A stretch of 41,343 nucleotides of DNA from a virus. A model generated the notes under the pieces. That model was not told where the DNA came from. It did no database searches and was given only the letters and a program-made list of their open reading frames with translations. Below are positions 25,999 to 36,328 of the stretch, one piece after another. The stretch's first letter is position 1. Every line of letters starts with the position of its first letter. Position numbers and translations under genes: made by a program. The DNA lies in the IMG/VR virus record IMGVR_UViG_3300031110_000004, one strand, 5' to 3'.

Positions 25999-26021
25999 GG
26001 CCTCTTCGGAGGCCTTTTCTT
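25999..26021 (+). terminator. Intrinsic terminator after the fibre gene
   Basis: GGCCTC-TTCG-GAGGCC followed by TTTTCTT. Confidence 0.78.
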
Positions 26022-26042
26022 ATTCCCTGGGGAGGGGCAAGG

Positions 26043-26408
26043 ATGGATGGTATGGAAGAGCTGAAAAACTGGGCAATGGGCCTTGTGTTTGGTCCGGCAA
26101 TGGGCCTACTGCTCTGGTACTTCAAGCGTGCAAATGATCGATCAGACAAGCGCCTGGATGACATCGAGCAGGATATCGAACGGACCCGTGACGATGTGTC
26201 CAAGAAGCTCGACCGGGAGGAGCTGCGCCCGGTATGGGAGAAGATCGGCCTGCAGGACAATGACATCAAGAACCTGGCCGCCGTCTTCTCGCAGGAGCTG
26301 CGCGGGCAGATCGACAACCTGCGCAAGGAGTCGAACGACCACCAGCGCCAGACTAACGACCGTCTTGACCGCTTGTTCATTGCGGTTACCTCGAAGGGTA
26401 AGGACTGA
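26043..26408 (+). CDS. Putative holin-like membrane protein (one N-terminal TM helix plus coiled coil)
   Basis: 121 aa. WAMGLVFGPAMGLLLWYF is hydrophobic and the rest is a charged coiled coil. Immediately upstream of the endolysin (TGATG junction). Confidence 0.45.
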   Translation: MDGMEELKNWAMGLVFGPAMGLLLWYFKRANDRSDKRLDDIEQDIERTRDDVSKKLDREELRPVWEKIGLQDNDIKNLAAVFSQELRGQIDNLRKESNDHQRQTNDRLDRLFIAVTSKGKD

Positions 26409-26932
26409 TGAAGACCTCAAGCAAGTATCTATCCGCTGCTGTGCTGGCCTTGGTAGCCGCCGGCGCATCGCAGACCAGCATCCTGGATCAATTCATCCGC
26501 GAGAAGGAAAGCGGTGACCGTTACGAACTGAAGGCCTACCAGGACGGCGCCCGGGTATGGACCATCTGCGACGGCAAGACGGCTGGCGTCAAGAAGGGCG
26601 ACACCATGACCAAGGCCCAGTGCGATGAATGGCGGAAGTCAGAGATCGGCCGGCGCCTGGCCGTAGCACACCGGGTCATCAAGGTGCCGATGAGCGAAGC
26701 GGCCTGGGCTGGGTTCGGCTCGTTCTGCTGGAACATCGGTGACGCCGGTTGCGAGCGGTCCACCAGTGCCAAGCTGATCAACGCCGGGCGCCAGGTCGAT
26801 GGCTGCAAATCCATGCTGAACTGGCGCTACATCACCCGCGACGGCCTGAAAGTGGACTGCTCACAGCCTAACCCCTACTGCGCCGGGGTGTGGGACCGCC
26901 GCAACGCGGAGGCCGAGCTATGCCAGCTCTGA
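26408..26932 (+). CDS. SAR endolysin (GH24 lysozyme-like)
   Basis: 174 aa. Weakly hydrophobic Ala/Gly-rich N-terminus YLSAAVLALVAAGAS. E-x8-D-x5-T spacing in EKESGDRYELKAYQDGARVWT. Confidence 0.82.
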   Translation: MKTSSKYLSAAVLALVAAGASQTSILDQFIREKESGDRYELKAYQDGARVWTICDGKTAGVKKGDTMTKAQCDEWRKSEIGRRLAVAHRVIKVPMSEAAWAGFGSFCWNIGDAGCERSTSAKLINAGRQVDGCKSMLNWRYITRDGLKVDCSQPNPYCAGVWDRRNAEAELCQL

Positions 26933-27336
26933 AGGCATTGCTCGCCAGCCACTGGCTATGGCTGGCGCTTTTCGCCGCGGGCGTTGGGGTTGGTGGCTAT
27001 CTGATGCTTGGCCAAGTTCAAGACGCCCGGTCAGCTGCAGATGCTGCCAAGAAGGAAGCCAAGGAAGCATATGACAAGGCCGACGAGCTGGGAAAGTCGC
27101 TCGCCTCAGTGCTCGCCCGTCAGGCGCAGACGGATGCAAGCCTTGCCGTCCGGAAGCGCCAGGAGGCCGCCCTGCAGGCTCAACTCAAAGGATTGCATTC
27201 TGACCTTGACCGAGTGCTCAAAGATGACCCGAACTCTTCTGTGTGGGGCGCTGGCTGCGTCCCTGATGCTGTTGCTTCACGGCTGCGGCTACCGACAGAC
27301 CCAGACTGTCCAGCCGCCGCGGGAACTGCCCCCTGA
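26920..27336 (+). CDS. i-spanin (Rz-like)
   Basis: 138 aa from ATG 26920 behind GGAGG. N-terminal TM helix (WLWLALFAAGVGVGGYLML), then a coiled coil. Confidence 0.75.
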   Translation: MPALKALLASHWLWLALFAAGVGVGGYLMLGQVQDARSAADAAKKEAKEAYDKADELGKSLASVLARQAQTDASLAVRKRQEAALQAQLKGLHSDLDRVLKDDPNSSVWGAGCVPDAVASRLRLPTDPDCPAAAGTAP

Positions 27337-27511
27337 ATCTCTGCTGGTCGATACGCCTATTCCAGCACCTGAAGGCCGGAAGAACTCCGATCTAGCCAAG
27401 TGGGCGCCGGAACTTTACTGCGCACTGATGCAGTCCAATGCGGACAAGGCGGCCCTGCGCGCTTGGCGGGAGGGCAAGCCGTACACGGCCGATGCATTGA
27501 CTTGTGAGTGA
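27224..27511 (+). CDS. o-spanin (Rz1-like lipoprotein), overlapping the 3' part of the i-spanin gene
   Basis: 95 aa in the +1 frame. Signal plus lipobox ...LMLLLHGC. Pro-rich mature part. Confidence 0.72.
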   Translation: MTRTLLCGALAASLMLLLHGCGYRQTQTVQPPRELPPESLLVDTPIPAPEGRKNSDLAKWAPELYCALMQSNADKAALRAWREGKPYTADALTCE

Positions 27512-27515
27512 CAGC

Positions 27516-28385
27516 ATGTCCAGAAACTTTCCCCTTCAAACCTCAGCCGAACCACAGATAATCCCGATTGCCGGTGGCGAGTCGGGATTCCACAGAATCT
27601 TCGTAGCCTTTGCCACCGCTCCATCTGGCGGGTATGTCAGCGTCGAGAAACGCCTTCTTGGGTCTCCATACTGGATGCCCATCATCGGCGGCGAGAACGT
27701 TCCGATCACGTCCGGAGAGGTATCGGTATTTACCGATGGCACCATCGGCGCCTTGCGCATCACGTTCATTGCCCTGGCTGGCGGCACGAGCCCAACGCTC
27801 TGGCTCAGTAGCTCGCCAACCGCATGGCCGCCGCTTTCTCTCATGACCGACAAGGGCACCGGCCCGTCAGCCCGCCTCCGCGTAGATCCAGGCCAAACCG
27901 GATTCTTCGCCGGCCGGTTCTTCCGTTCTTACATCGAGGCCCTGATCCCGGTGGCTGGCCCATCGGTTCAATTCCGCTTCACCAGTCCTGTCGACTTCAT
28001 CCTCTGGTCGCAGGTCATGGAGCTCACGCAAGGTGCTCTGGAGCTGCGTATTTACTCAGGAGCCACCAGCAGCGGAACCTGGACCCAGCGCCCGGTGATC
28101 GGCGTCAACCGGATGGCTGAGCGCCCGCAGCCCCTGTATGCGGCCCAGGCAACGCTGGAGACGGGCGGAAACTTCACTGGTGGCACAGAGGTCGACCTAA
28201 TCAAGGTGCGCACCTCCTCGGCAAACAACAGCGCCCAGAACGTAGGCCTGACCTCAAGCGAGCGCGGCCTTCCTGCCGGTGTGTTCCATGGCCGGTTCGC
28301 CACTCTGGCCGGGGGGCTTACCGTTAACGACGCCGCCCAGCTCCTATACAGCCTGCAGTGGGAAGAGCGGCCAGTGGTGCTGTAA
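27516..28385 (+). CDS. Hypothetical late protein (289 aa) downstream of the lysis cassette
   Basis: ATG 27516 (alternative GTG 27504). No TM segment or recognised motif. Last gene before the bidirectional terminator. Confidence 0.7.
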   Translation: MSRNFPLQTSAEPQIIPIAGGESGFHRIFVAFATAPSGGYVSVEKRLLGSPYWMPIIGGENVPITSGEVSVFTDGTIGALRITFIALAGGTSPTLWLSSSPTAWPPLSLMTDKGTGPSARLRVDPGQTGFFAGRFFRSYIEALIPVAGPSVQFRFTSPVDFILWSQVMELTQGALELRIYSGATSSGTWTQRPVIGVNRMAERPQPLYAAQATLETGGNFTGGTEVDLIKVRTSSANNSAQNVGLTSSERGLPAGVFHGRFATLAGGLTVNDAAQLLYSLQWEERPVVL

Positions 28386-28416
28386 AGAAAAGGCCCGCAT
28401 TGCGCGGGCCTTGTTT
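28384..28416. terminator. Bidirectional intrinsic terminator at the convergence of the late and leftward operons
   Basis: AAAGAAAA-GGCCCGC-attgc-GCGGGCC-TTGTTT. The 7-bp GC stem is flanked by A and T tracts. Confidence 0.75.
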
Positions 28417-28637
28417 CATGGGCACGGGATCAGTTCTGGGTTTCGCCTGATAAGACCTTTGCTTGATAGATCGAGGCCTTTAGTCATGCCGGCGTACTCG
28501 GGATCATGCGGTGATCGCCACTTACCATCGTTCCACCATTTCCAGTCCTTACCTGAGCAATCCCGCCACGGGTTTAGGCTTCCGATGTAATAGTGCGTGG
28601 CGCCTTCTGGCTTATCGGACCAGTCGATCCCGCTCAC
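28416..28637 (-). CDS. Hypothetical Trp-rich protein (73 aa)
   Basis: GTG start in a GTGA overlap with the upstream stop. Last gene of the leftward operon. Confidence 0.5.
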   Translation of the reverse strand: MSGIDWSDKPEGATHYYIGSLNPWRDCSGKDWKWWNDGKWRSPHDPEYAGMTKGLDLSSKGLIRRNPELIPCP

Positions 28638-28960
28638 TTCTTCACCCCAATGCTCTCGATCCCCACGAACAGCCGAGTACCGCCATCGACTGCCTGAACC
28701 TCACTGGCCGACAGCAGCCGCTCATGGATGACAATAACCGGAATATCGCGCCCGGCGATTCCGCAGTTGTCGACGGTCTTCTCGTAGCCCTGGCCCAGCG
28801 CCTTCATCTGGGCATCGTAGTCGGCCTCGTAGAAGCAGACGATGCTGCCGGACTTGATGACGTAGTGCGGGGCTGCCTTGGCCTTTCCAGAGGCAACCAT
28901 GCCAGCGACGAAGCCCAGCATGATGAGGGCGGAGGCTTTCACGAGTTGGGATTTGGTCAT
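28634..28960 (-). CDS. Hypothetical secreted/periplasmic protein (108 aa)
   Basis: The N-terminus KASALIMLGFVAGMVASGKAKA looks like a cleavable signal peptide. ATGA overlap upstream. Confidence 0.6.
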   Translation of the reverse strand: MTKSQLVKASALIMLGFVAGMVASGKAKAAPHYVIKSGSIVCFYEADYDAQMKALGQGYEKTVDNCGIAGRDIPVIVIHERLLSASEVQAVDGGTRLFVGIESIGVKK

Positions 28961-29157
28961 TGCATGTTGCTCCTGATCAGGTCGATTACTTCGTTGACGC
29001 CCTTGGCATAGTCCTCGGGCTTGCTCTGCGTGCCCCGGCTGAGCACGGTGATGACATCGTCCAGGCCCTTGGCTTGGCCGCGCACCATAAGGACGCCGAT
29101 CTCCTCGGCGGTCTGGCGGGCCCAGCGCCGGCCCTCTATTCGCTCAAGCTGGCTCAT
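28957..29157 (-). CDS. Hypothetical protein (66 aa)
   Basis: ORF with an ATG start, overlapping its neighbours by 4 and 14 nt. Confidence 0.55.
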   Translation of the reverse strand: MSQLERIEGRRWARQTAEEIGVLMVRGQAKGLDDVITVLSRGTQSKPEDYAKGVNEVIDLIRSNMQ

Positions 29158-29446
29158 GATCTTCTCCCATGAAGTTCATCCCCATGGATAGTCCGATGTA
29201 CACCTCCAGCATCGCGCCCTTCGACATCGTGTATCCCGGCAGCAAGTAGATCGTGTCGCACTCCATCAGCTGCTTGATCGCCATGCGCATGTAGGCACTC
29301 CAGCCCCCGAACGGTGGCTCCGGGTTCTCGGCCGGGTTCTCGACGTGGTGGCCAAGGCCGCGCAAGCGCGCAGCCTCAGCGTTGAATGCCGGGTAGTTCA
29401 GGTCCTTGATTCCGGACATCGGCCCGGAGATGTAGATCCGCTTCAT
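29144..29446 (-). CDS. DUF4406-like protein (nucleoside 2-deoxyribosyltransferase-like fold)
   Basis: 100 aa from ATG 29446 in an ATGA overlap. MKRIYISGPMSG...YPAFN... is typical of DUF4406. The track's N-terminal extension lies inside the upstream gene. Confidence 0.62.
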   Translation of the reverse strand: MKRIYISGPMSGIKDLNYPAFNAEAARLRGLGHHVENPAENPEPPFGGWSAYMRMAIKQLMECDTIYLLPGYTMSKGAMLEVYIGLSMGMNFMGEDHEPA

Positions 29447-30162
29447 TTGCCTGCCCTCTCGAAAGCCTTGAGAAGCCATTCGTCTTTGTCGACCTGCCCG
29501 CGATACCAGCGGACGTAATCGCTGGGCACGTCCTCGATTCGCAGACCCTTGTGCTTGCCGAACGACATGATCGTCGGGATGCGGGCTTCGTCGCTGATCA
29601 GTGCCAGTTGCTCCCACGATTCAACCTCGACGCCTTTGTGCTTCAGCATCAGCACCAGGAAGCGCAGCAGCGCGGCACACATGCGAACGTCATCAAGCGC
29701 GGCGTGGGCACCCTTCACCAGGTCGCGAGCCCAGGCCATGCGGCCATAGATTCGCCCGATGTGGTAGATCATTGCCGCTTGCTTGTGGCTGTCCAATTCC
29801 GGAAATATCGAACGGCTCAGAGCCAGTGTGCAGATGCGGCGGACTTCTGGCTCACCCATCATCCGCCAGTCAAAGTCGATGTTGTGCCCGATCAGGTAGT
29901 CGGCATCGTCAGGCCATGCGAACCGCTCGCTATCCGCGCAGCCGTCCAGGTCTTCTTCGATGATGTTGTGCACCGACATTGCGCCCAGGCTGATCTGGAT
30001 AGATGGCCGGAACCTCTCATGGTAGAACTCGAATTGCTCCGGGCTCTTCACGGCGCAGAACCCTTCAACGGTGGCCGGCAGGTGAAGCCATGCCGCCTCG
30101 ATGATCTGGTCCGTTTCGTGGTCAGTACCGGTTGTTTCCGTGTCGCCGAGCAATACTTTCAT
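29443..30162 (-). CDS. DEDDh 3'-5' exonuclease (ExoX-like) with a C-terminal KHKG...DVP...Y..W domain
   Basis: 239 aa. Exo I DTETTG, Exo II GHNIDFD, Exo III HAALDD. The C-terminal FGKHKGLRIEDVPSDYVRWY matches the ExoX / DUF3820-type tail. Confidence 0.8.
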   Translation of the reverse strand: MKVLLGDTETTGTDHETDQIIEAAWLHLPATVEGFCAVKSPEQFEFYHERFRPSIQISLGAMSVHNIIEEDLDGCADSERFAWPDDADYLIGHNIDFDWRMMGEPEVRRICTLALSRSIFPELDSHKQAAMIYHIGRIYGRMAWARDLVKGAHAALDDVRMCAALLRFLVLMLKHKGVEVESWEQLALISDEARIPTIMSFGKHKGLRIEDVPSDYVRWYRGQVDKDEWLLKAFERAGK

Positions 30163-30198
30163 GGTCTTCGTCTCACTTTTGGTCTGTTCTGTTTCGGT

Positions 30199-30915
30199 TT
30201 AGGCGGTTTGTGTTTCACTTGCTGAGTATGGTGAATGCTGCCGCAGCCACTCTTGGGTCTTGTCCGTTGCCAATGGCTCGGTTCCTGTCCATCCGATCGG
30301 CCATCCCATCAGGTTTTCCCAGAAATCCGGGTTCACATACAGCTTGCCTATGGGCGTTCCACGCAATTTGTTCTGGCTCCCTCCGACCTCCTGGAATGTT
30401 CCGCCCCATCGGCTTGAGCCATGGCATGGAGTCGGCCACGATCCAGCAACGGGAACGGGCATGAGGGGCGCCAACATGGTTTGATCCCAGCACTCCCCAT
30501 CTTGCAGAGAACCCCAGGTCGGCCAGGTCACCGAGCACAACTCCGAGTCCTCGATGAGTGAGCGCTGACGAGTTTTCCACGAACGCGAATCGCGGTCGTA
30601 CTTCGCCAATGATTCTTGCCATTTCTTTCCACAGGCTGCTGGCCTCGCCTTCAATGCCTGACTTCTTTCCTGCCTGAGATATGTCGGTGCAGGGGAAGCC
30701 CCCAGAAACGACATCAACAACTCCGCTCCAGGGGCGTCCGTCGAAGGTACAAACATCATCCCAAATGGGGAACGGCTGAAGATGGCCTTCATTTTGCCGC
30801 TGCATGAGTCGGCTGGAACAAAAGGTATTGATCTCCACCGCGCAAACCGTTCTCCATCCGAGCAGTTTTCCGGCGAGAATTCCGCCACCAGCGCCTGCGA
30901 AAAGTGCCAGCTCAT
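30199..30915 (-). CDS. Alternative +1-frame ORF over the whole methyltransferase gene (frame B, 238 aa) carrying a WPTP / LMGWPIGWT module. Status unresolved.
   Basis: ATG 30915 is 4 nt after the frame-A ATG, behind the same GGAG. Open for 238 codons. Contains SWKTRQRSL, TWPTWGSLQDGECW, GSWPTP and NPDFWENLMGWPIGWT. See findings. Confidence 0.35.
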   Translation of the reverse strand: MSWHFSQALVAEFSPENCSDGERFARWRSIPFVPADSCSGKMKAIFSRSPFGMMFVPSTDAPGAELLMSFLGASPAPTYLRQERSQALKARPAACGKKWQESLAKYDRDSRSWKTRQRSLIEDSELCSVTWPTWGSLQDGECWDQTMLAPLMPVPVAGSWPTPCHGSSRWGGTFQEVGGSQNKLRGTPIGKLYVNPDFWENLMGWPIGWTGTEPLATDKTQEWLRQHSPYSASETQTA

Positions 30916-30919
30916 TCAT
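30215..30919 (-). CDS. DNA (cytosine-5)-methyltransferase, compact form (frame A)
   Basis: 234 aa from ATG 30919. Motifs LFAGAGGG (I), GGFPCTDIS (IV), FVENS (VI), GAPHARSRCWIVA (VIII), RAIGNGQ (X-like). ATGA overlap with the upstream ATPase stop. Confidence 0.8.
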   Translation of the reverse strand: MNELALFAGAGGGILAGKLLGWRTVCAVEINTFCSSRLMQRQNEGHLQPFPIWDDVCTFDGRPWSGVVDVVSGGFPCTDISQAGKKSGIEGEASSLWKEMARIIGEVRPRFAFVENSSALTHRGLGVVLGDLADLGFSARWGVLGSNHVGAPHARSRCWIVADSMPWLKPMGRNIPGGRREPEQIAWNAHRQAVCEPGFLGKPDGMADRMDRNRAIGNGQDPRVAAAAFTILSK

Positions 30920-32646
30920 ACGGTCTCCGCTATGCCGCCACGGATCCACACACTGGCGTAGCTGGCGTGCGGCGGCATCGGCTGCTTCATGGTCCCGGCG
31001 ATAATCATGGTGTCCATTGCGCCCAGCTGGTCCAGTTTCAGCAGCATACCCAGCAGCCGCTGGCGAGATTTCGAATCCAGAACGTCGAACCGGTCAAGCA
31101 TCACAAGGCGCAGTTGGCTGATCTGCGCGATGGCCAGGGCAATCAGTGCGTCGGCGCGCCACTTCTCGGATTCGCTGCACAGGCCGTACAGGCGGCCGCC
31201 GAAGGTGATCGACATGTCAGGCTCTACAACGGCCTTGGCCCAGCCGCACATTCCAGAGAGAACGGCAATCGACTGGTTCACAGGGGCCAGTGCATCGTTC
31301 AGCAGCTCACCAGGGATTCCGTCCGGAGCCAGGGCATCGCCGGCCGCATTCCAAGCCTTGACTGTGGCATGGGCTTCGGCTGCCTTGTTGGTCTTCTCGT
31401 CGACTTTCGCTGCGGCGCCCTTCAGGTCTTCCAGGGCCTTGAAGTCAACGCGCAGCTGGGCAATTGCGTCCTTCAGCTGCTGGACGCTGTCACGGGCTCG
31501 CTGCATCTTGTCTGCGTCGAATGCTGATCCTTCCTCACCCCTGATGCGTTTAGCCTCCTGCTCGGCCGCCTTGCTCTCGGCAATGGCTTCCTGATCCTTC
31601 GCTACTGTGCTGCGCAGCAGATTGACTGCATCCTTGGCCTTGGTCAGCTCGAGCGCAGCGTCGGAAATCTTTCCGGTGCCCTCCTTCAGGCCTACGTACT
31701 TCACCAGATGCCCGTCTACCATGCTCAGCGTCTCATCGCAGCATGGGCATTTCAGCGGCACCGTGGCGCCCTTGAGTGCCGTGACGGCGGCCTGCAGATC
31801 TGGCAGCTTGGCTTCCCACTTGGCCAGTTCAGTCTGATCGGCATCCAGCTTGGCTTGGCGTCGCTTCAGCAGACTGGCGGTATCTACAAGCTTCGATAGG
31901 CGCTCGGCTCGACCATCATGATCGCGCTGGGCCTGCTCCTGCTCGCCGATGAACTTGATCCCGCTTTCCAGGTCGGCCTGGTGCTTGGTGACCTTGGCGA
32001 CGATCTCCTGAAGGTCCTTTTCGGTTGGCACCTTGCCTTCGGGCGCTGGCGCCTCCCAGTCCTCGGCGACGTTGGTGCCCCAGTTGCTGCCGGTGATCGA
32101 TCGCCACACGCCCTTGGCCTGGGTTGCCCGGGCGTAGCACTCCTTGGCCGCCGACGGGAAGCCGCTGCGCATCATCGGAAGGATCTCTTCGATCAGGCTT
32201 TCGTCGACTCCACGCTCGGCCAACTTCTCGCCAACCAGCTTCGGGGAAGCCTTCACGGCGGTCAGCTTGAATAGCATGGTCCGGCGTTCGTCGTCGCTTA
32301 GGCTGGCGAACTTCTGCGGGTCCAGAACGAACGGCATGGAGTCGGCGCCGACGAACTCGCTGACGTGGTGGTCGCCCTTTGGCAGACGGAACTCTGCACC
32401 GTCGTCGTTATCATCGAAGGCGATACTCACGCGCCCCTTCTCGGCGCCGTTGTGTAGCAGCTGGCCCAGCTCCTTCTTGGCGTCAACGCGGCGCGGCTTG
32501 CCCAGGAAGGCCATGCTGATGGCGTCTGCGATGCTGCTCTTGCCTTGGGCGTTATCTGCTGACACCACCATGACGGCCTTGGCCATGTCCAGATCTGCTC
32601 GGCCAATGCCGATCACGTTGCTGATTTCGATTCGGTTCAGTTTCAT
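30916..32646 (-). CDS. Rad50/SbcC-like SMC-family ATPase with a CxxC hook
   Basis: 576 aa from ATG 32646 (AAGGAccaagaccaATG). Walker A SADNAQGKSS, long coiled coil with a central LKCPCCDE, signature-like CSESEKW, Walker B LRLVMLDRFD. Confidence 0.78.
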   Translation of the reverse strand: MKLNRIEISNVIGIGRADLDMAKAVMVVSADNAQGKSSIADAISMAFLGKPRRVDAKKELGQLLHNGAEKGRVSIAFDDNDDGAEFRLPKGDHHVSEFVGADSMPFVLDPQKFASLSDDERRTMLFKLTAVKASPKLVGEKLAERGVDESLIEEILPMMRSGFPSAAKECYARATQAKGVWRSITGSNWGTNVAEDWEAPAPEGKVPTEKDLQEIVAKVTKHQADLESGIKFIGEQEQAQRDHDGRAERLSKLVDTASLLKRRQAKLDADQTELAKWEAKLPDLQAAVTALKGATVPLKCPCCDETLSMVDGHLVKYVGLKEGTGKISDAALELTKAKDAVNLLRSTVAKDQEAIAESKAAEQEAKRIRGEEGSAFDADKMQRARDSVQQLKDAIAQLRVDFKALEDLKGAAAKVDEKTNKAAEAHATVKAWNAAGDALAPDGIPGELLNDALAPVNQSIAVLSGMCGWAKAVVEPDMSITFGGRLYGLCSESEKWRADALIALAIAQISQLRLVMLDRFDVLDSKSRQRLLGMLLKLDQLGAMDTMIIAGTMKQPMPPHASYASVWIRGGIAETV

Positions 32647-32804
32647 TGGTCTTGGTCCTTGGTCTGTGCAACTGGTTTTCGATGTTCGCGCTTCTCGGCC
32701 TTGGTGATCTGGTCGCGAAGCCATGCCGGCCCTAGCAGCCGCACAAAGCTTTCCCACTCCTGATCGTTAAGCCGTATGGCTCTGCTCTTTCGTTCCACGG
32801 TCAT
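32643..32804 (-). CDS. Hypothetical small basic protein (53 aa)
   Basis: ATG 32804; the track start 32849 is a TTG inside a hairpin. MTVERKSRAIRLNDQEWESFVRLLG... ATGA overlap with the ATPase start. Confidence 0.5.
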   Translation of the reverse strand: MTVERKSRAIRLNDQEWESFVRLLGPAWLRDQITKAEKREHRKPVAQTKDQDQ

Positions 32805-32847
32805 GCCTCGGTTTAGTGCCAGAAATCCGGCTGGCTTCGGTACTGCC

Positions 32848-32869
32848 AAAGCCCCAGTTAAGGGGCTTG
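32848..32869 (-). terminator. Hairpin downstream of the Rmf/CrpP-like gene (weak terminator)
   Basis: Minus strand: AAGCCCC-ttaact-GGGGCTT followed by TGG, so only a short T tail. Confidence 0.35.
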
Positions 32870-32885
32870 TGGGTGGTGGGGGTAG

Positions 32886-33047
32886 TTAGCTGGCACTCTT
32901 ATCGCTTGCTTCCTGCCAGCCGCGCCGCCACTCGCGGCGAGCAATGCGGATGTACTTGGACATAGAGCTGATCTGATGCGGGCAATCGTCCAGTGGCTTT
33001 CCGTCTTGGAATGCCTTTGCGCCTTCTTTCTCGTGATTGGTTTGCAT
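32886..33047 (-). CDS. Rmf/CrpP-family small protein
   Basis: 53 aa from ATG 33047 behind GGAGGGcaagacg. ...GAKAFQDGKPLDDCPHQ...REWRRGWQEA matches the Rmf/CrpP pattern (A-F/Y-x-G, CP-aromatic/His, W-x-x-GW). Confidence 0.62.
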   Translation of the reverse strand: MQTNHEKEGAKAFQDGKPLDDCPHQISSMSKYIRIARREWRRGWQEASDKSAS

Positions 33048-33120
33048 CGTCTTGCCCTCCAGGGCGTTGTTCGTTTCGATGGGTGAACTGTATATGCGTT
33101 TGCATATGCGCGCAAGTGGT

Positions 33121-33155
33121 TTTCTGAAAATAAAAAGCCCCAGCAATGCCGGGGC
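33121..33155 (-). terminator. Intrinsic terminator after the FtsK-gamma-like gene
   Basis: Minus strand: GCCCCGG-cattg-CTGGGGC followed by TTTTTATTTT. Confidence 0.72.
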
Positions 33156-33173
33156 CCATTCACTGCAGATCGA

Positions 33174-34199
33174 TCAATCCATGACCGGGAAGGTCTCGTC
33201 CGGCGACAGGTTGCCTTCGGCGTCGATCACACCTTCCAGCTCCATGCGGTCGAAGGCCTGCTCGGCGATCTCGAACGGGATGTCGAAGGTCACCGACAGC
33301 GCGCCGGCCGATGCTGAACCCTTCTCGCGGGTCTTGGCGGCAATGCGATCGTAGAGCTCGTCGGTCAGATCGGACATCGGTACATCCTCTCCAAGGTCGG
33401 CAACTTCGGCCGCCTGGTCCTGCTCGCGGTCGATAGCCTCTTTGGTCTCATCAGTCGACAGCTCGTCCTTGTTGCGCACCAGCTCATACTGGCCATCCTT
33501 CGCATCGCCGACGAACTGCACCACGCCTTCTTCAGCCAGGATCTGCAGGATGCGCTCGGCCTTCTGGATGCCGATGCTCAGCTTGTTCTGCAGGCCGGCG
33601 TAGGTCGCGTTCTGCTGCTCGGTAACGAACGCTCTGGCGTCTTCCAAGAGCTTCGGCGGGATCTCGATAGCCTTGGCCACGTCACCGGCCTTCTTGGTGC
33701 CGCCATCCCGGGATTTCTTGGTCGGGGCTGTAGGCTGTTCTCCTTCATCGCCAAGGTCCAGGGGCTTCTGGTCCTTCTCCGATTCGATGCCGTCCAGGGC
33801 GTCGAAGTAGTCACGCTCATAAAGCACGATCAGCACGTCGGACTTGTCCTGCACCTTGCTGATCAGGTCGTTGTAATGCTCCTCGGTGCTCTTCACGATG
33901 CCGACGACCTGGCCGTTGCTGACCTTCAGGTCCTTCAGGGTCATCTCGACGGTCGCGGTCGCTCCGCCGGCAATCAGCCGGGCAGCCAGCAGCGCCGATG
34001 CCTTGAGTTCTTGCTGAAGCTCGGAGATCACCGCGTCCTGCTGCTTCTCGGACATCTTGCGGAAGCCGACTTCATGCTTGCTCAGCTGGTTGATGCTGGC
34101 TTGCACCAGGTCGTGCAGCAGCAGTTCAGAGGCGATCTCGGAAGGCTGCATGCCATCTTTTCGGGCGCGGGCGATAACGGCTTTGTGTTCTGCTTTCAT
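33174..34199 (-). CDS. Acidic protein with two FtsK-gamma-like winged-helix motifs
   Basis: 341 aa. ARAFVTEQQNATYAGLQNKLSIGIQKAERILQILAEEGVV aligns by eye with E. coli FtsK gamma ([40 protein letters not shown]). A second, weaker copy is ALSVTFDIPFEIAEQAFDRMELEGVI. Confidence 0.7.
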   Translation of the reverse strand: MKAEHKAVIARARKDGMQPSEIASELLLHDLVQASINQLSKHEVGFRKMSEKQQDAVISELQQELKASALLAARLIAGGATATVEMTLKDLKVSNGQVVGIVKSTEEHYNDLISKVQDKSDVLIVLYERDYFDALDGIESEKDQKPLDLGDEGEQPTAPTKKSRDGGTKKAGDVAKAIEIPPKLLEDARAFVTEQQNATYAGLQNKLSIGIQKAERILQILAEEGVVQFVGDAKDGQYELVRNKDELSTDETKEAIDREQDQAAEVADLGEDVPMSDLTDELYDRIAAKTREKGSASAGALSVTFDIPFEIAEQAFDRMELEGVIDAEGNLSPDETFPVMD

Positions 34200-34262
34200 G
34201 GTGTTTCCTTATGGTCTTTGGTTTGGGTTGTTCGGGTGTTGCTGGCGTCCTTGCCGGGCGGA

Positions 34263-35210
34263 TCAGTCCATGGGTGGGAAGTCTTCCTGCTGCTGGTCCT
34301 GCTGGTCCCTCACTTCCGCTGCGGCGCGCTGCTGGCGCTGGCGTTGCTGCTTGGGTTCAGGATCTTTCTCTGGCTCAGGCTCGGCCTCCTGTTGGATGAT
34401 CTCGCCGGTGCCGGTGTCGACCATCTCGGCAGCGCCACGGTCAACGGTGCGGCGTCCATCTTGCATTTCTTCGTTCTCGATCACGATGCCGTCAACGATG
34501 GTTGCGCCCAGGCCGCTCTCGCCGGAGTTGGTGACAGCGATGGCATTGGCCATCTCGATCGACGACGGCATGTACTTCAGGACCTGCAGGAGCGGAACCT
34601 TGCGGCAGTACATTTCCCAGTCGCGGAAACTGTAGTGGCGCTGTCCGACCTTGTTGTACTTGTTGCGATGCTTGGTGATCTTGGCGACAGACCACAGCTC
34701 GATGATCGGCATCTGCGCGTCGCGAACCCAGCCAATGGCATAGGCGTGCGTGATGTCTACCGGGTCATCAAGGTCTGTTTCATTGTGGATAACCAGGTCG
34801 CGGCGGGCGCCATCAGTGAACGTGTACTTCTGGTCCTTGAAGATCACGCCGGTATAGACCGTGCCGCGCCCGCTTCGCGAAACCAGATCAACAAGGCCCT
34901 TCCAGCCAGGAACGAACGTGCAGGTGTCCTTGTATGGAATCAGGTAGCCGGCGCCATTCACGCCAGGCTCCAGGCCCAGCGCAGCAGCAGTCATCATGGA
35001 CGCTGCGATGCTCAAGTGCGTGCAACGCTGAAGCTGCTGGTTGCTGCTGAACGCGGTCAGGGCCAGGCGCGCCATGCGATCGGTACTTAGGTGCTTCGGC
35101 AGCGCCAGCTCAAGCTGTGGCTTCAGCTTTTCCATGAACCCGGAAAACGCCTGTACCGGGGTTATTTGCCTTTGGCCCGTGGCGGCCTCTTTCAGTTGAT
35201 TGGTCGACAT
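34263..35210 (-). CDS. recT: RecT-family single-strand annealing protein
   Basis: 315 aa. N-terminal ...FMEKLKPQLELALPKHL..., core ...LGLEPG...GYLIPY.... Adjacent to a YqaJ-type exonuclease. Acidic Gln-rich tail. Confidence 0.88.
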   Translation of the reverse strand: MSTNQLKEAATGQRQITPVQAFSGFMEKLKPQLELALPKHLSTDRMARLALTAFSSNQQLQRCTHLSIAASMMTAAALGLEPGVNGAGYLIPYKDTCTFVPGWKGLVDLVSRSGRGTVYTGVIFKDQKYTFTDGARRDLVIHNETDLDDPVDITHAYAIGWVRDAQMPIIELWSVAKITKHRNKYNKVGQRHYSFRDWEMYCRKVPLLQVLKYMPSSIEMANAIAVTNSGESGLGATIVDGIVIENEEMQDGRRTVDRGAAEMVDTGTGEIIQQEAEPEPEKDPEPKQQRQRQQRAAAEVRDQQDQQQEDFPPMD

Positions 35211-35212
35211 GG

Positions 35213-35422
35213 TCAGTTCGCCTTGTAGTTGCGGTCTTTGCGGTAGGCGGCCTCGTCAGTAGGCGAGACCTCGCGGAAGTCAGGGGTGTCGATCTTCTTG
35301 GCGTACATGGCGCGCTGTGACTGCATGAACAGTTCGCGATCCCACACGCGGTGATGGCTGATGATCGAGGATGCGTTGCCGGTCGGGTCGGTGGTCTTCA
35401 GGTAGAGGTCTTGTGCGTTCAT
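35213..35422 (-). CDS. Hypothetical protein (69 aa)
   Basis: GGAGaagaccATG context. Lies between the exonuclease and recT. Confidence 0.6.
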   Translation of the reverse strand: MNAQDLYLKTTDPTGNASSIISHHRVWDRELFMQSQRAMYAKKIDTPDFREVSPTDEAAYRKDRNYKAN

Positions 35423-35431
35423 GGTCTTCTC

Positions 35432-36328
35432 CTACTTCAACCGCAAGACGCGGCTGGTGGTGGTGCGCTCGAACTTGCGAGCGATGCGTGGGTGTGCGGC
35501 GCGGAACAGGTCCGGCACGAGCCGGGTAGTATCCTGGCTCTTCCAGGTCAGCAGGGTTTCGGCGCCGAACTTCAGGATCTGGTGCTCGCGCATGAACAGC
35601 TTGATGGCCTTGGCCTTGTCGTCGGCATCGTCTTCCAGAAGCTTGATGCGCTTCTTCAGGTCCTTCAGCGCCTTGTACGCGTCGACGATCTCGTCGCTGG
35701 CCTGGACCACTGAGCCATGGTCACGAGCGAATAACCGCTCGATGTCGCCAACGGTGGTCGCTTCTGGCGCCTCCTTCGACTGGATGCGCTGCCAGAACTC
35801 GACCTCCTTGTCGCGGATGCCGGCGATGGTTTCCTCGTCGCGCTTGACTTCGTAGATGCGGAAGTCATCGATGCCAATCAAAACCGGGAAGATGGTGCGG
35901 GCGGCGCCGGTGATCATCATCCCGTGCATGGCCTGGGCGGTGTAGTGGACCGGGATCTCGTCGGTCCACTCGGTGCCCCACTCCTTCGCGCCGAACTGGT
36001 TGACAGACTTGGCTTCGATGTTCTCGCCGGTGTCTGCCTCGGCATCGATCTCGGCAGCAAGGAATTCATGCTCGTGGTCGCGGTATCGTTCGCCGCGCTT
36101 GACCAGCTCAAGGCCAGTTTCTTCGACCAGCATGTCGAGGATGTAGGGCTCAAGCCGGGTACCGCGCTTGAAGATCTTGGCCTTGGCCGGGTCTTCTGGC
36201 TGCTTGCCTTCGACCTTGTCGAGATATACGTCTAGAGGGGTACGGTAAGGGCTCAGGCCCAGGATGGCGGCGATGTCGCTACCGCCCAGATATGTCTGCC
36301 GATCGAGCTGGCCAACTGCGATATTCAT
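35432..36328 (-). CDS. YqaJ-type (lambda Exo-like) recombination exonuclease
   Basis: 298 aa from ATG 36328 behind GGGAGAA (the track start 36343 is TTG). ...YLGGSDIAAILGLSPYRTPLDVY... is the YqaJ signature. Confidence 0.85.
   Translation of the reverse strand: MNIAVGQLDRQTYLGGSDIAAILGLSPYRTPLDVYLDKVEGKQPEDPAKAKIFKRGTRLEPYILDMLVEETGLELVKRGERYRDHEHEFLAAEIDAEADTGENIEAKSVNQFGAKEWGTEWTDEIPVHYTAQAMHGMMITGAARTIFPVLIGIDDFRIYEVKRDEETIAGIRDKEVEFWQRIQSKEAPEATTVGDIERLFARDHGSVVQASDEIVDAYKALKDLKKRIKLLEDDADDKAKAIKLFMREHQILKFGAETLLTWKSQDTTRLVPDLFRAAHPRIARKFERTTTSRVLRLK

Follow-up and report, generated by a model that had tools for sequence, protein, structure and literature searches.

A phage cytosine methyltransferase gene with two co-extensive reading frames, most likely a two-protein enzyme recorded as one gene

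Introduction

Nearly all characterised C5-cytosine DNA methyltransferases (C5 methyltransferases) are monomers, the exceptions named in the account of PMC3404938 being M.AquI and M.EcoHK31I. According to the same account, the small domain of these enzymes makes all the sequence-specific contacts. M.EcoHK31I, which recognizes YGGCCR, is described as two polypeptides (PMC2836561, PMC3404938). Its beta chain is encoded entirely in another frame of the alpha gene, has motif IX and is needed for activity (PMC2836561, PMC3404938), and the first 42 residues of beta are reported to be dispensable; the alpha chain is given motifs I-VIII as well as motif X, together with a predicted target-recognition domain (PMC2836561). 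M.AquI is described as split in series, with motifs I-VIII together with a portion of the variable region on alpha and the rest of that region with motifs IX and X on beta (PMC3404938). Furthermore, catalytic and recognition parts can assemble from separate chains, as fragment complementation is reported for M.HhaI, M.BspRI, M.BsuRI and M.SssI (PMC3404938). Here we analyse a methyltransferase gene of a virus, IMG/VR record IMGVR_UViG_3300031110_000004, in a DNA stretch of 41,343 nucleotides (nt; the window, to the whole of which all coordinates refer). Two open reading frames (ORFs) on the minus strand, A and B, cover this gene almost from end to end. Comparison of related loci makes it very probable that both frames are translated and selected, and the arrangement is most likely a two-protein enzyme that current annotation records as one gene.

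M.EcoHK31I (Lee, Kam & Shaw 1995) was compared with A and B through its description in the two articles named above. As there described, it is likewise a two-polypeptide C5 methyltransferase, with motifs I-VIII and X on the large chain and motif IX, putative in the case of B, on an overprinted chain. Here too the second chain lies in another frame of the catalytic gene, B being +1 relative to A in about 170 loci and under purifying selection of its own. The dispensable N-terminal part of the small chain is a further likeness to B. The layouts differ: beta is described as lying inside the alpha gene, whereas A and B are co-extensive, share one ribosome-binding site and stop a few to tens of nucleotides apart. 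Moreover, target recognition is assigned to alpha in M.EcoHK31I, whereas in A/B it is frame B in which the variable region is under selection. M.EcoHK31I is given a defined recognition sequence, whereas the A/B family sits in phage replication and recombination modules in which no restriction gene was noticed and, unlike the described enzyme, is very large and phage-borne. The name M.EcoHK31I stands on no database match of A or B. M.AquI, as PMC3404938 presents it, resembles A/B as a natural split with the variable region and the distal motifs on a second polypeptide; in A/B, by contrast, motif X stays on the catalytic chain and the genes overlap completely. The splits of M.HhaI, M.BspRI, M.BsuRI and M.SssI are presented as laboratory constructs, whereas A/B is a natural gene arrangement.

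Long gene overlaps are uncommon in bacteria and phages, and their reality is often contested. Overlaps of the Rz/Rz1 type are much shorter and concern a small embedded gene, whereas the 230-385 codons of A/B overlap over their whole length and the products look like parts of a single enzyme. What lambda Rz/Rz1, in the account of PMC9409062, has in common with A/B is a same-strand gene embedded in another frame of a phage genome. No description of the A/B arrangement was found in the literature searched (overlapping genes, overprinting, motif IX, phage, methyltransferase).

Both frames stay open across related loci

Related loci were collected from viral contigs and one genome per species with a profile of B (160 loci, 143 unique) and, separately, with a profile of A (80 loci, 77 unique). 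A is open from end to end in 135 of the 143 unique loci of the B-ascertained set. Among the 77 unique loci of the A-ascertained set, 64 have B open across 85% or more of the length of A, and most of the others are dual with shifted starts. Dual openness is thus found whichever frame was used to find the locus and is no ascertainment artefact. In total, about 170 unique related loci (gene GC 46-65%) have both frames open for 230-385 codons and 12-25 stops in the third frame. The GC content of the loci ranges from 0.38 to 0.69, and the layout persists where the flanks of the locus are below 45% GC; the preliminary description of the window had suggested asking whether B stays open in homologues, including those of lower GC, and at nearly every related locus it does.

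The first three phage loci recovered by plain DNA similarity, in a P22-like Salmonella phage, a freshwater Caudoviricetes contig and a Pseudomonas Detrevirus, carry both ORFs in the same layout, and one of their records annotates the B-type ORF instead of A. Hosts given in the records include Pseudomonas, Acinetobacter, Citrobacter, Vibrio, Nitrosomonas, Verrucomicrobiota, Planctomycetes, Patescibacteria and a metagenome-assembled genome of Lutibacter. With the database match P0378 and the P0311 variant (see below), the dual layout reaches a more canonical clade of methyltransferases of the LDLFSGIGG type. Annotation is uneven: in the homologous E. coli RefSeq loci checked A is annotated and B is not, other pipelines call B a hypothetical protein, and some phage records label B-type ORFs DNA methyltransferase.

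Shuffling of synonymous codons was used as a null model. Shuffles within A left a mean of 5.8 stops in frame B across loci and shuffles within B a mean of 8.1 stops in frame A, and for most loci none of 300 trials left the frame open. Taken by segment, B across the catalytic part of A (zone 1, Table 1) acquired 2.8 stops, with a probability of remaining open, P(open), of ~0.05 per locus. For A across the middle of the gene the per-locus P(open) was ~0.18, and in the 11 loci with middles of 120-205 codons, where shuffles of B gave 4.5 stops, it was 0.023. In the window alone, B remained open through the first 160 codons in 4% of A shuffles, and the short middle of A would remain open by chance in 80% of trials. 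These window-only chances (0.04 and 0.8) are modest, hence the case rests on the comparison across loci; judged from that comparison, the evidence against chance is overwhelming.

Selection alternates between the frames

As far as substitution patterns reveal, selection along the gene is a mosaic, each frame being under protein-level purifying selection in its own segments (Table 1). For a near-relative comparison, differences between the window gene and 8 relatives of identical layout were counted at A codon positions 1, 2 and 3. Across zone 1, entropy at the three A positions is 0.59/0.38/1.11 (156 ungapped loci), and the residues of B change freely. The pattern is reversed in zone 2a, where 40 close pairs differ at 644/181/142 sites of A positions 1/2/3, that is, the differences are concentrated on the third position of B. 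Amino-acid identity in the same pairs is 0.88 in B vs 0.58 in A, and the model of A falls there below 50 in the predicted local distance difference test (pLDDT). Zone 3 returns to the pattern of frame A, with entropies of 0.65/0.64/1.35.

Between these segments lie two short places at which both frames are constrained. At the first, B (G)LWPTP begins 7 nt after A WIVA in 84 loci and 10 nt after it in 17. In the second, zone 2b, every codon position is conserved; entropy at B positions 1/2/3 is 0.81/0.77/1.22, the third being the freest, and amino-acid entropy is about equal in the two frames (1.37 in B, 1.38 in A). Here A EPxVGRV..RVDR overlaps B LNPxWVEWLMGWPxGWT, and the G of B GWP stands 1 nt from the G of A G(V/M)A in 113 loci.

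Table 1. Features of the A/B locus, with differences between the window gene and its 8 relatives.
Feature	Position	Strand	Description	Differences at A codon positions 1/2/3
ORF A	30215..30919	-	start ATG 30919-30917, stop 30217-30215, 234 codons	
ORF B	30199..30915	-	start ATG 30915-30913, stop 30201-30199, 238 codons, +1 vs A	
Shine-Dalgarno-like GGAG	30925..30928	-	before both starts; read in the letters, gcGGAGaccgtATGAATGagc	
Heptamer ATGAATG	30913..30919	-	A start 30919-30917, ATPase TGA 30918-30916, B start 30915-30913	
Zone 1, A codons 1-162	30434..30919	-	motifs I-VIII; A selected, B only kept open	254/134/540
First dual-constraint spot	30427..30445	-	A motif VIII WIVA 30445-30434 and B WPTP 30438-30427, nucleotides in common	
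Zone 2a, A codons 163-193	30341..30433	-	B ..TPCHGSSRWGGTFQEVGGSQNKLRGTPIGK; B selected, A only kept open	108/16/15
Zone 2b, second dual-constraint block, ~20 codons	30281..30340	-	B YVNPDFWENLMGWPIGWTGT (motif IX-like), A VCEPGFLGKPDGMADRMDRN	13/3/13
Zone 3, A codons 214-234	30218..30280	-	motif X RAIGNGQDPRVAAAAFTILSK; A selected, B tail a by-product	31/28/86

A further segment of B is selected at its N-terminus. Synonymous sites in A codons 1-13 are strongly constrained; 99% of loci, for instance, have TTC at F7 and 97% have GCT at A10. At least 11 variants have the B start 29-41 nt upstream of the sequence encoding motif I of A; B still begins there with MSWLIS.ALM or a close variant, whereas the A reading of this displaced DNA drifts (NVMANQQSLN, NELDDKQRTD, NGLVNQQRND). 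As the decapeptide is kept apart from motif I while the A reading drifts, the first ten residues of B are selected for themselves.

A subgroup of loci (L178, L201, L207, L214, L219, L234, L237, L242, L046, L068, L091, L094) carries 9-13 extra 5' codons. They resemble a tandem duplication in which the upstream copy keeps B MSWLIS.ALM and the downstream copy keeps A ELALFAGAGGG.

Protein A

The preliminary description had taken frame A for a compact C5-cytosine methyltransferase, and profile searches bear this out. PF00145 matches residues 4-162 (E = 4e-26), phrog_363, labelled 'DNA methyltransferase', matches A with E = 2e-53, and a profile of A aligns with M.HhaI over residues 16-177 (E = 2e-19). 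Motifs I, IV, VI and VIII are visible as LFAGAGGG, GGFPCTDIS, FVENS and HARSRCWIVA, and motif X, AIGNGQDPRVAAAAF, is conserved in a segment that shows A-frame selection. More than 8000 database relatives of A carry PF00145, the named ones being called DNA cytosine methyltransferase, and one entry (P0121) matches A at 100% identity. With the annotated DNA cytosine methyltransferase (Dcm) of Salmonella phage S9-5, A shares 55% identity over its full length, in an alignment that takes in the C-terminal ...GMAxR(V/M)DRxxA(I/L)GNGQxPRVAAAAF. Since A aligns with the S9-5 enzyme from end to end, the gene is not a broken enzyme with its C-terminus out of frame.

The AlphaFold model of A (93 homologues) reached a predicted template modelling (TM) score of 0.71. 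Residues 1-169 and 220-234 are confident, with pLDDT ~90 in the motif X helix (residues 222-233), and residues 170-217 lie below 50. Foldseek aligned the model with M.HhaI and M.HaeIII over ~180 columns at a TM score of 0.60 per query and 0.44 per target; given the latter value, A covers about half of these enzymes. Past approximately residue 162 no methyltransferase profile matched A in Pfam, NCBIfam, PADLOC or the comparison with M.HhaI. Between motifs VIII and X of A neither a target-recognition (small) domain nor motif IX was found, as judged by profiles, selection, pLDDT below 50 and the half coverage of the known structures. In longer relatives the middle of A is junk-like in composition, and the same DNA reads in B as repeated conserved modules. 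Long A relatives of 305-363 amino acids (aa) were considered as fusions, a reading that was rejected as their ends are the same and the added length is in the junk-like middle.

Protein B

B has 688 database relatives, the best with 76% identity over the full length. Among the 120 of them listed, all but two are without a Pfam domain and one is a Leptospira hypothetical protein. Residues 150-238 of B alone retrieved 1586 proteins in a search of 1.84 billion representatives. B matches phrog_1008, phrog_26627 and phrog_35493, and of the B-type families in PHROGs one is labelled DNA methyltransferase and two are labelled unknown function. Neither B nor its relatives of 294-361 aa gave a match in Pfam, NCBIfam or PADLOC, and a profile of 13 B sequences matched none of the PDB sequences searched.

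The protein is made up of a conserved N-terminal decapeptide (MSWxFSxAL), approximately 150 mostly unselected residues and a conserved C-terminal block, which consists of a variable WPTP-type module, found once to several times in other loci, and of LNPxWVEWLMGWPxGWT after it. The latter we liken to motif IX, L.P.....(L/V)MG(F/Y/W)P, which we take to be its form in M.HhaI and Dcm. It stands at the place expected for motif IX and shows B-frame selection, and the same DNA is conserved in the A frame too. In the AlphaFold model of B (93 homologues) the mean pLDDT is 58, with residues 1-100 below 50 and residues 170-230 at 72-82, and helices are predicted over FWENLMGW and the tail. The models of A and B are complementary and agree with the selection map. 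Tryptic peptides unique to B include WGGTFQEVGGSQNK, and LYVNPDFWENLMGWPIGWTGTEPLATDK is another peptide that is unique to B.

Long variants of B, 300-420 aa (P0076, P0080, P0109, P0114, P0331, P0343; loci L149, L150, L097, L050), hold 2-5 (W/L)PT(P/L) repeat modules and a conserved GNYNRKGxSxxSGDGLAT unit, and frame A is there an R/G/E/S-rich filler with a recurring DVAD. From their sequences, the repeated modules may be a multi-module recognition region. At the other extreme P0250, P0294 and other matches of 57-130 aa, together with phrog_26627 and phrog_35493, comprise only the C-terminal block of B (WPTP...LNPxWVEWLMGWPIGWT...); these may be fragments, internally started B products or stand-alone small subunits. 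One match, P0386 (1520 aa, nine matches to the B motif), was discarded as spurious, being an unrelated repeat protein (...SLHGWAVG... repeats).

A proposed two-subunit enzyme and its alternatives

We propose that A and B probably form a two-subunit C5 methyltransferase in which B supplies recognition and motif IX. Ribosomes at one Shine-Dalgarno site would begin either at the start of A or, 4 nt on, at the ATG of B. A would then consist of a large catalytic domain with motifs I-VIII and of the helix of motif X, joined by a filler that is not selected in frame A and is presumably kept stop-free so that motif X stays attached. B would be made of the decapeptide, a by-product of A coding of ~150 residues, and the B-selected part, which would give the target-recognition and motif IX part that A is without. 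This part of B is proposed for recognition since the small domain makes the sequence-specific contacts and A has no segment for it in its own frame. The subunits would associate like alpha and beta of M.EcoHK31I. The role of the enzyme would presumably be self-protection of the phage DNA from host restriction, which an early/recombination module of a phage and adenine methyltransferase neighbours would fit; adenine methyltransferases do adjoin related loci. For the family as a whole our opinion is only slightly tilted towards the broader statement, namely that a large family of orphan cytosine methyltransferases of phages and prophages are obligate two-subunit enzymes made from two co-extensive frames of one gene, each frame alternating selected protein with stop-free filler, and B having modular WPTP-type recognition units.

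Several observations weigh against the proposed enzyme or against the roles given to its parts. The A reading of zone 2b (EPxVGRVAxGVAxRVDR) is also conserved and, going by its sequence, could be a short equivalent of motif IX, in which case A would be more self-sufficient. The identity of the B block as motif IX found no support from PF00145, from the B profile against PDB sequences or from the structure search, and Foldseek gave no fold match for the B model, which is too weak for comparison. The ~150 residues of B that look unselected and disordered would be an unusual burden for a subunit. In one locus, L209, B can start only internally and has 147 codons, hence its long N-terminal part is not indispensable. 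Furthermore, the target-recognition domain of M.EcoHK31I is assigned to alpha in the description available, so the division of labour proposed here differs from it, and we infer both the translation of B and its binding to A.

An alternative that draws on some of the same observations is that both proteins are made, with A active alone and B, overprinted on a dispensable linker, serving a function independent of methylation (e.g. anti-defence or regulatory). B is indeed without detectable similarity to methyltransferase models or solved structures, its C-terminal block is also found in short predicted proteins of 60-130 aa, and the conserved A reading of zone 2b could be A's own motif IX. However, no A-frame-selected segment lies between motif VIII and zone 2b, which leaves A with no evident target-recognition domain, and the selected part of B sits between motifs VIII and X, where ordinary C5 methyltransferases have the variable region and motif IX. 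Moreover, the sole characterised protein overprinted in a C5 methyltransferase gene, that of M.EcoHK31I, is described as an essential enzyme subunit. An independent B is therefore in our view unlikely, though it is the alternative to which we give most weight, and the two-subunit enzyme is preferred.

The preliminary description had offered three readings of the locus: overprinting with two products; one enzyme with its catalytic half in A and its WPTP/GWT half in B, joined by frameshifting or broken by an indel; and a shadow ORF driven by GC content. The overprinting reading is upheld by the open state of both frames at nearly every related locus and by the purifying selection that each undergoes in its own segments. 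In the single-chain reading, translation would start in A, pass by a +1 shift into B after motif VIII and return to A by a -1 shift before motif X or, in a variant, compensating indels would have accumulated in a broken gene. Taken in the order A, B, A the selected segments do give the canonical succession of motifs I-VIII, variable region, motif IX-like block and motif X, and chimeras of an A N-terminus with a B C-terminus exist in databases. Yet recoding needs neither an open B with a conserved ATG in zone 1 nor an open A in zone 2, both of which are kept against expectation. WIVA of A and LWPTP of B come from the same nucleotides, so no hybrid can have both. The junctions of the chimeras are scattered (after motif IV, at motif VI, after motif VIII), no conserved shift site was seen at either boundary, and the other frame is kept over more than a downstream part, as programmed frameshifting would not require. 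The recurrence of the layout in ~170 unique loci excludes a sequencing error or private indel in the window, and on the same ground a pseudogene with two indels or sequencing errors, suggested by a motif IX-like block in B and motif X in A, was rejected. Hence a single recoded chain is very improbable; the distribution of the two halves over A and B stands, their joining by frameshift or indel does not, and the return of motif X to frame A was no part of that reading.

The reading of B as a chance or composition-driven shadow ORF with coincidental motif likenesses is refuted, and we give it next to no credence. Its best support is that in the window by itself the openness of B is modestly improbable (P ~0.04 for zone 1) and that in zone 1 the sequence of B is largely dictated by A. 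In contrast, the layout does not depend on GC-rich surroundings, as it holds with flanks below 45% GC; in the middle of the gene B is the conserved frame (0.88 vs 0.58) with substitutions falling on its third position; and the N-terminal peptide of B is kept even where it does not overlap motif I of A.

If the broader statement on the family is true, few conserved same-strand pairs of overlapping genes known to us from bacteria or their viruses would rival A and B in length and spread. Strong comparative evidence stands behind the overlap: loci that number in the hundreds and have diverged, purifying selection specific to each frame, and two short doubly constrained blocks. The locus is a natural model for two proteins that share DNA, in which each frame pays with a long stop-free unselected filler. 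The E. coli RefSeq annotation checked lacks one of the two partners, for which Pfam has no family; gene callers retain a single frame and drop the other, and cloning of only the annotated methyltransferase may yield an inactive or non-specific enzyme. A widespread natural split of catalysis and recognition would turn M.EcoHK31I from a curiosity into a general design. Such pairs would give ready-made heterodimeric scaffolds of the kind that, according to PMC2836561, is sought for targeted methylation. In addition, the number of WPTP-type units (one to several) could set or multiply target specificity, and a recognition subunit built of modules would obviously lend itself to rapid specificity change in an anti-restriction methyltransferase.

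Start region and gene neighbourhood

The heptamer ATGAATG with both start codons lies 6 nt downstream of GGAG, and the starts of A and B, 4 nt apart, have this one Shine-Dalgarno motif in common. Coordinates agree with the preliminary description in this respect, including the TGA of the upstream ATPase gene within the heptamer. All the peptides it had quoted are present, namely LFAGAGGG, GGFPCTDIS, FVENS, GAPHARSRCWIVA and RAIGNGQ in frame A and SLAKYDRDSRSWKTRQRSL, TWPTWGSLQDGECW, GSWPTP and NPDFWENLMGWPIGWT in frame B. Its hand count of GC at third codon positions over codons 1-58 was exact for B (36/58) and slightly off for A, with 31/58 found instead of 33.

Among 171 unique related loci, 141 have a Shine-Dalgarno-like motif 4-18 nt 5' of the A start, and the start context (ATG/GTG/TTG)AATGAG(C/T)TGG is seen again at nearly all related loci. 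The A start codon is ATG in 94, GTG in 46 and TTG in 19 of the 171, and in 12 a non-start codon stands in its place. The B start is ATG in 171/171, a constancy that is partly built in, as the search pattern demanded ATG; the A-ascertained loci mostly have the same B start context. The stop codons of A and B are usually 5-40 nt apart.

Directly upstream of A lies an AAA_23/SMC_N ATPase ORF (30919-32757, minus strand, 613 aa). Its TGA overlaps the ATG of A (ATGA) and the ATG of B follows directly (TGAATG), thus, to judge from this junction, termination-reinitiation from the ATPase stop could be a further route to both starts. In 70/171 related loci an ORF in frame B, 60 codons or more in length, ends at this TGA.

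Chimeric and variant loci

Of the top matches scanned in the search with B residues 150-238, 8/146 carried PF00145 in frame. These were chimeras with scattered junctions, a 1-nt indel variant (P0311, L244-L246) and a deletion remnant (P0351, L247). A genuine single-chain family with the B block was not found at the sensitivity of the 1.84-billion-representative search. The P0311 variant, known from nine contigs, is a dual gene of the LDLFSGIGG type with a 1-nt indel in the B-selected segment (zone 2). Motifs I-VIII and an LMGYPAGWT block stand there in one frame and motif X (RVDRLKSLGNAIVPQ) in the third frame, and the gene sits downstream of an N6/N4 methyltransferase gene. From their sequences, the chimeras and P0311 look like sporadic indels or assembly errors.

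The locus with an internal B start (L209:1501-2223) has the start context ATGCGTGAG, and B is open there only from an internal ATG (MANDQECG...). This internally starting second ORF resembles M.EcoHK31I, where beta sits inside the alpha gene.

The neighbourhood of A and B in the window is an early/recombination module of a phage, with RecT, an FtsK-gamma domain protein, the AAA/SMC-like ATPase, an RNase T-type exonuclease and a DUF4406 protein. Region 26000-36000 has no close relatives in the phage collection, only short matches to Pseudomonas phages (YqaJ-like exonuclease, HNH endonuclease fragment), which suggests from sequence comparison a poorly sampled Pseudomonas-type phage or prophage. 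Two minus-strand ORFs, at 29147-29617 and 29446-30162, overlap by ~170 nt as listed; they are those of the RNase_T-type exonuclease and, downstream of it, of the DUF4406 protein. The DUF4406 match covers residues 60-148 only, hence the true start of this ORF is probably an internal ATG (MKRIYISGP...).

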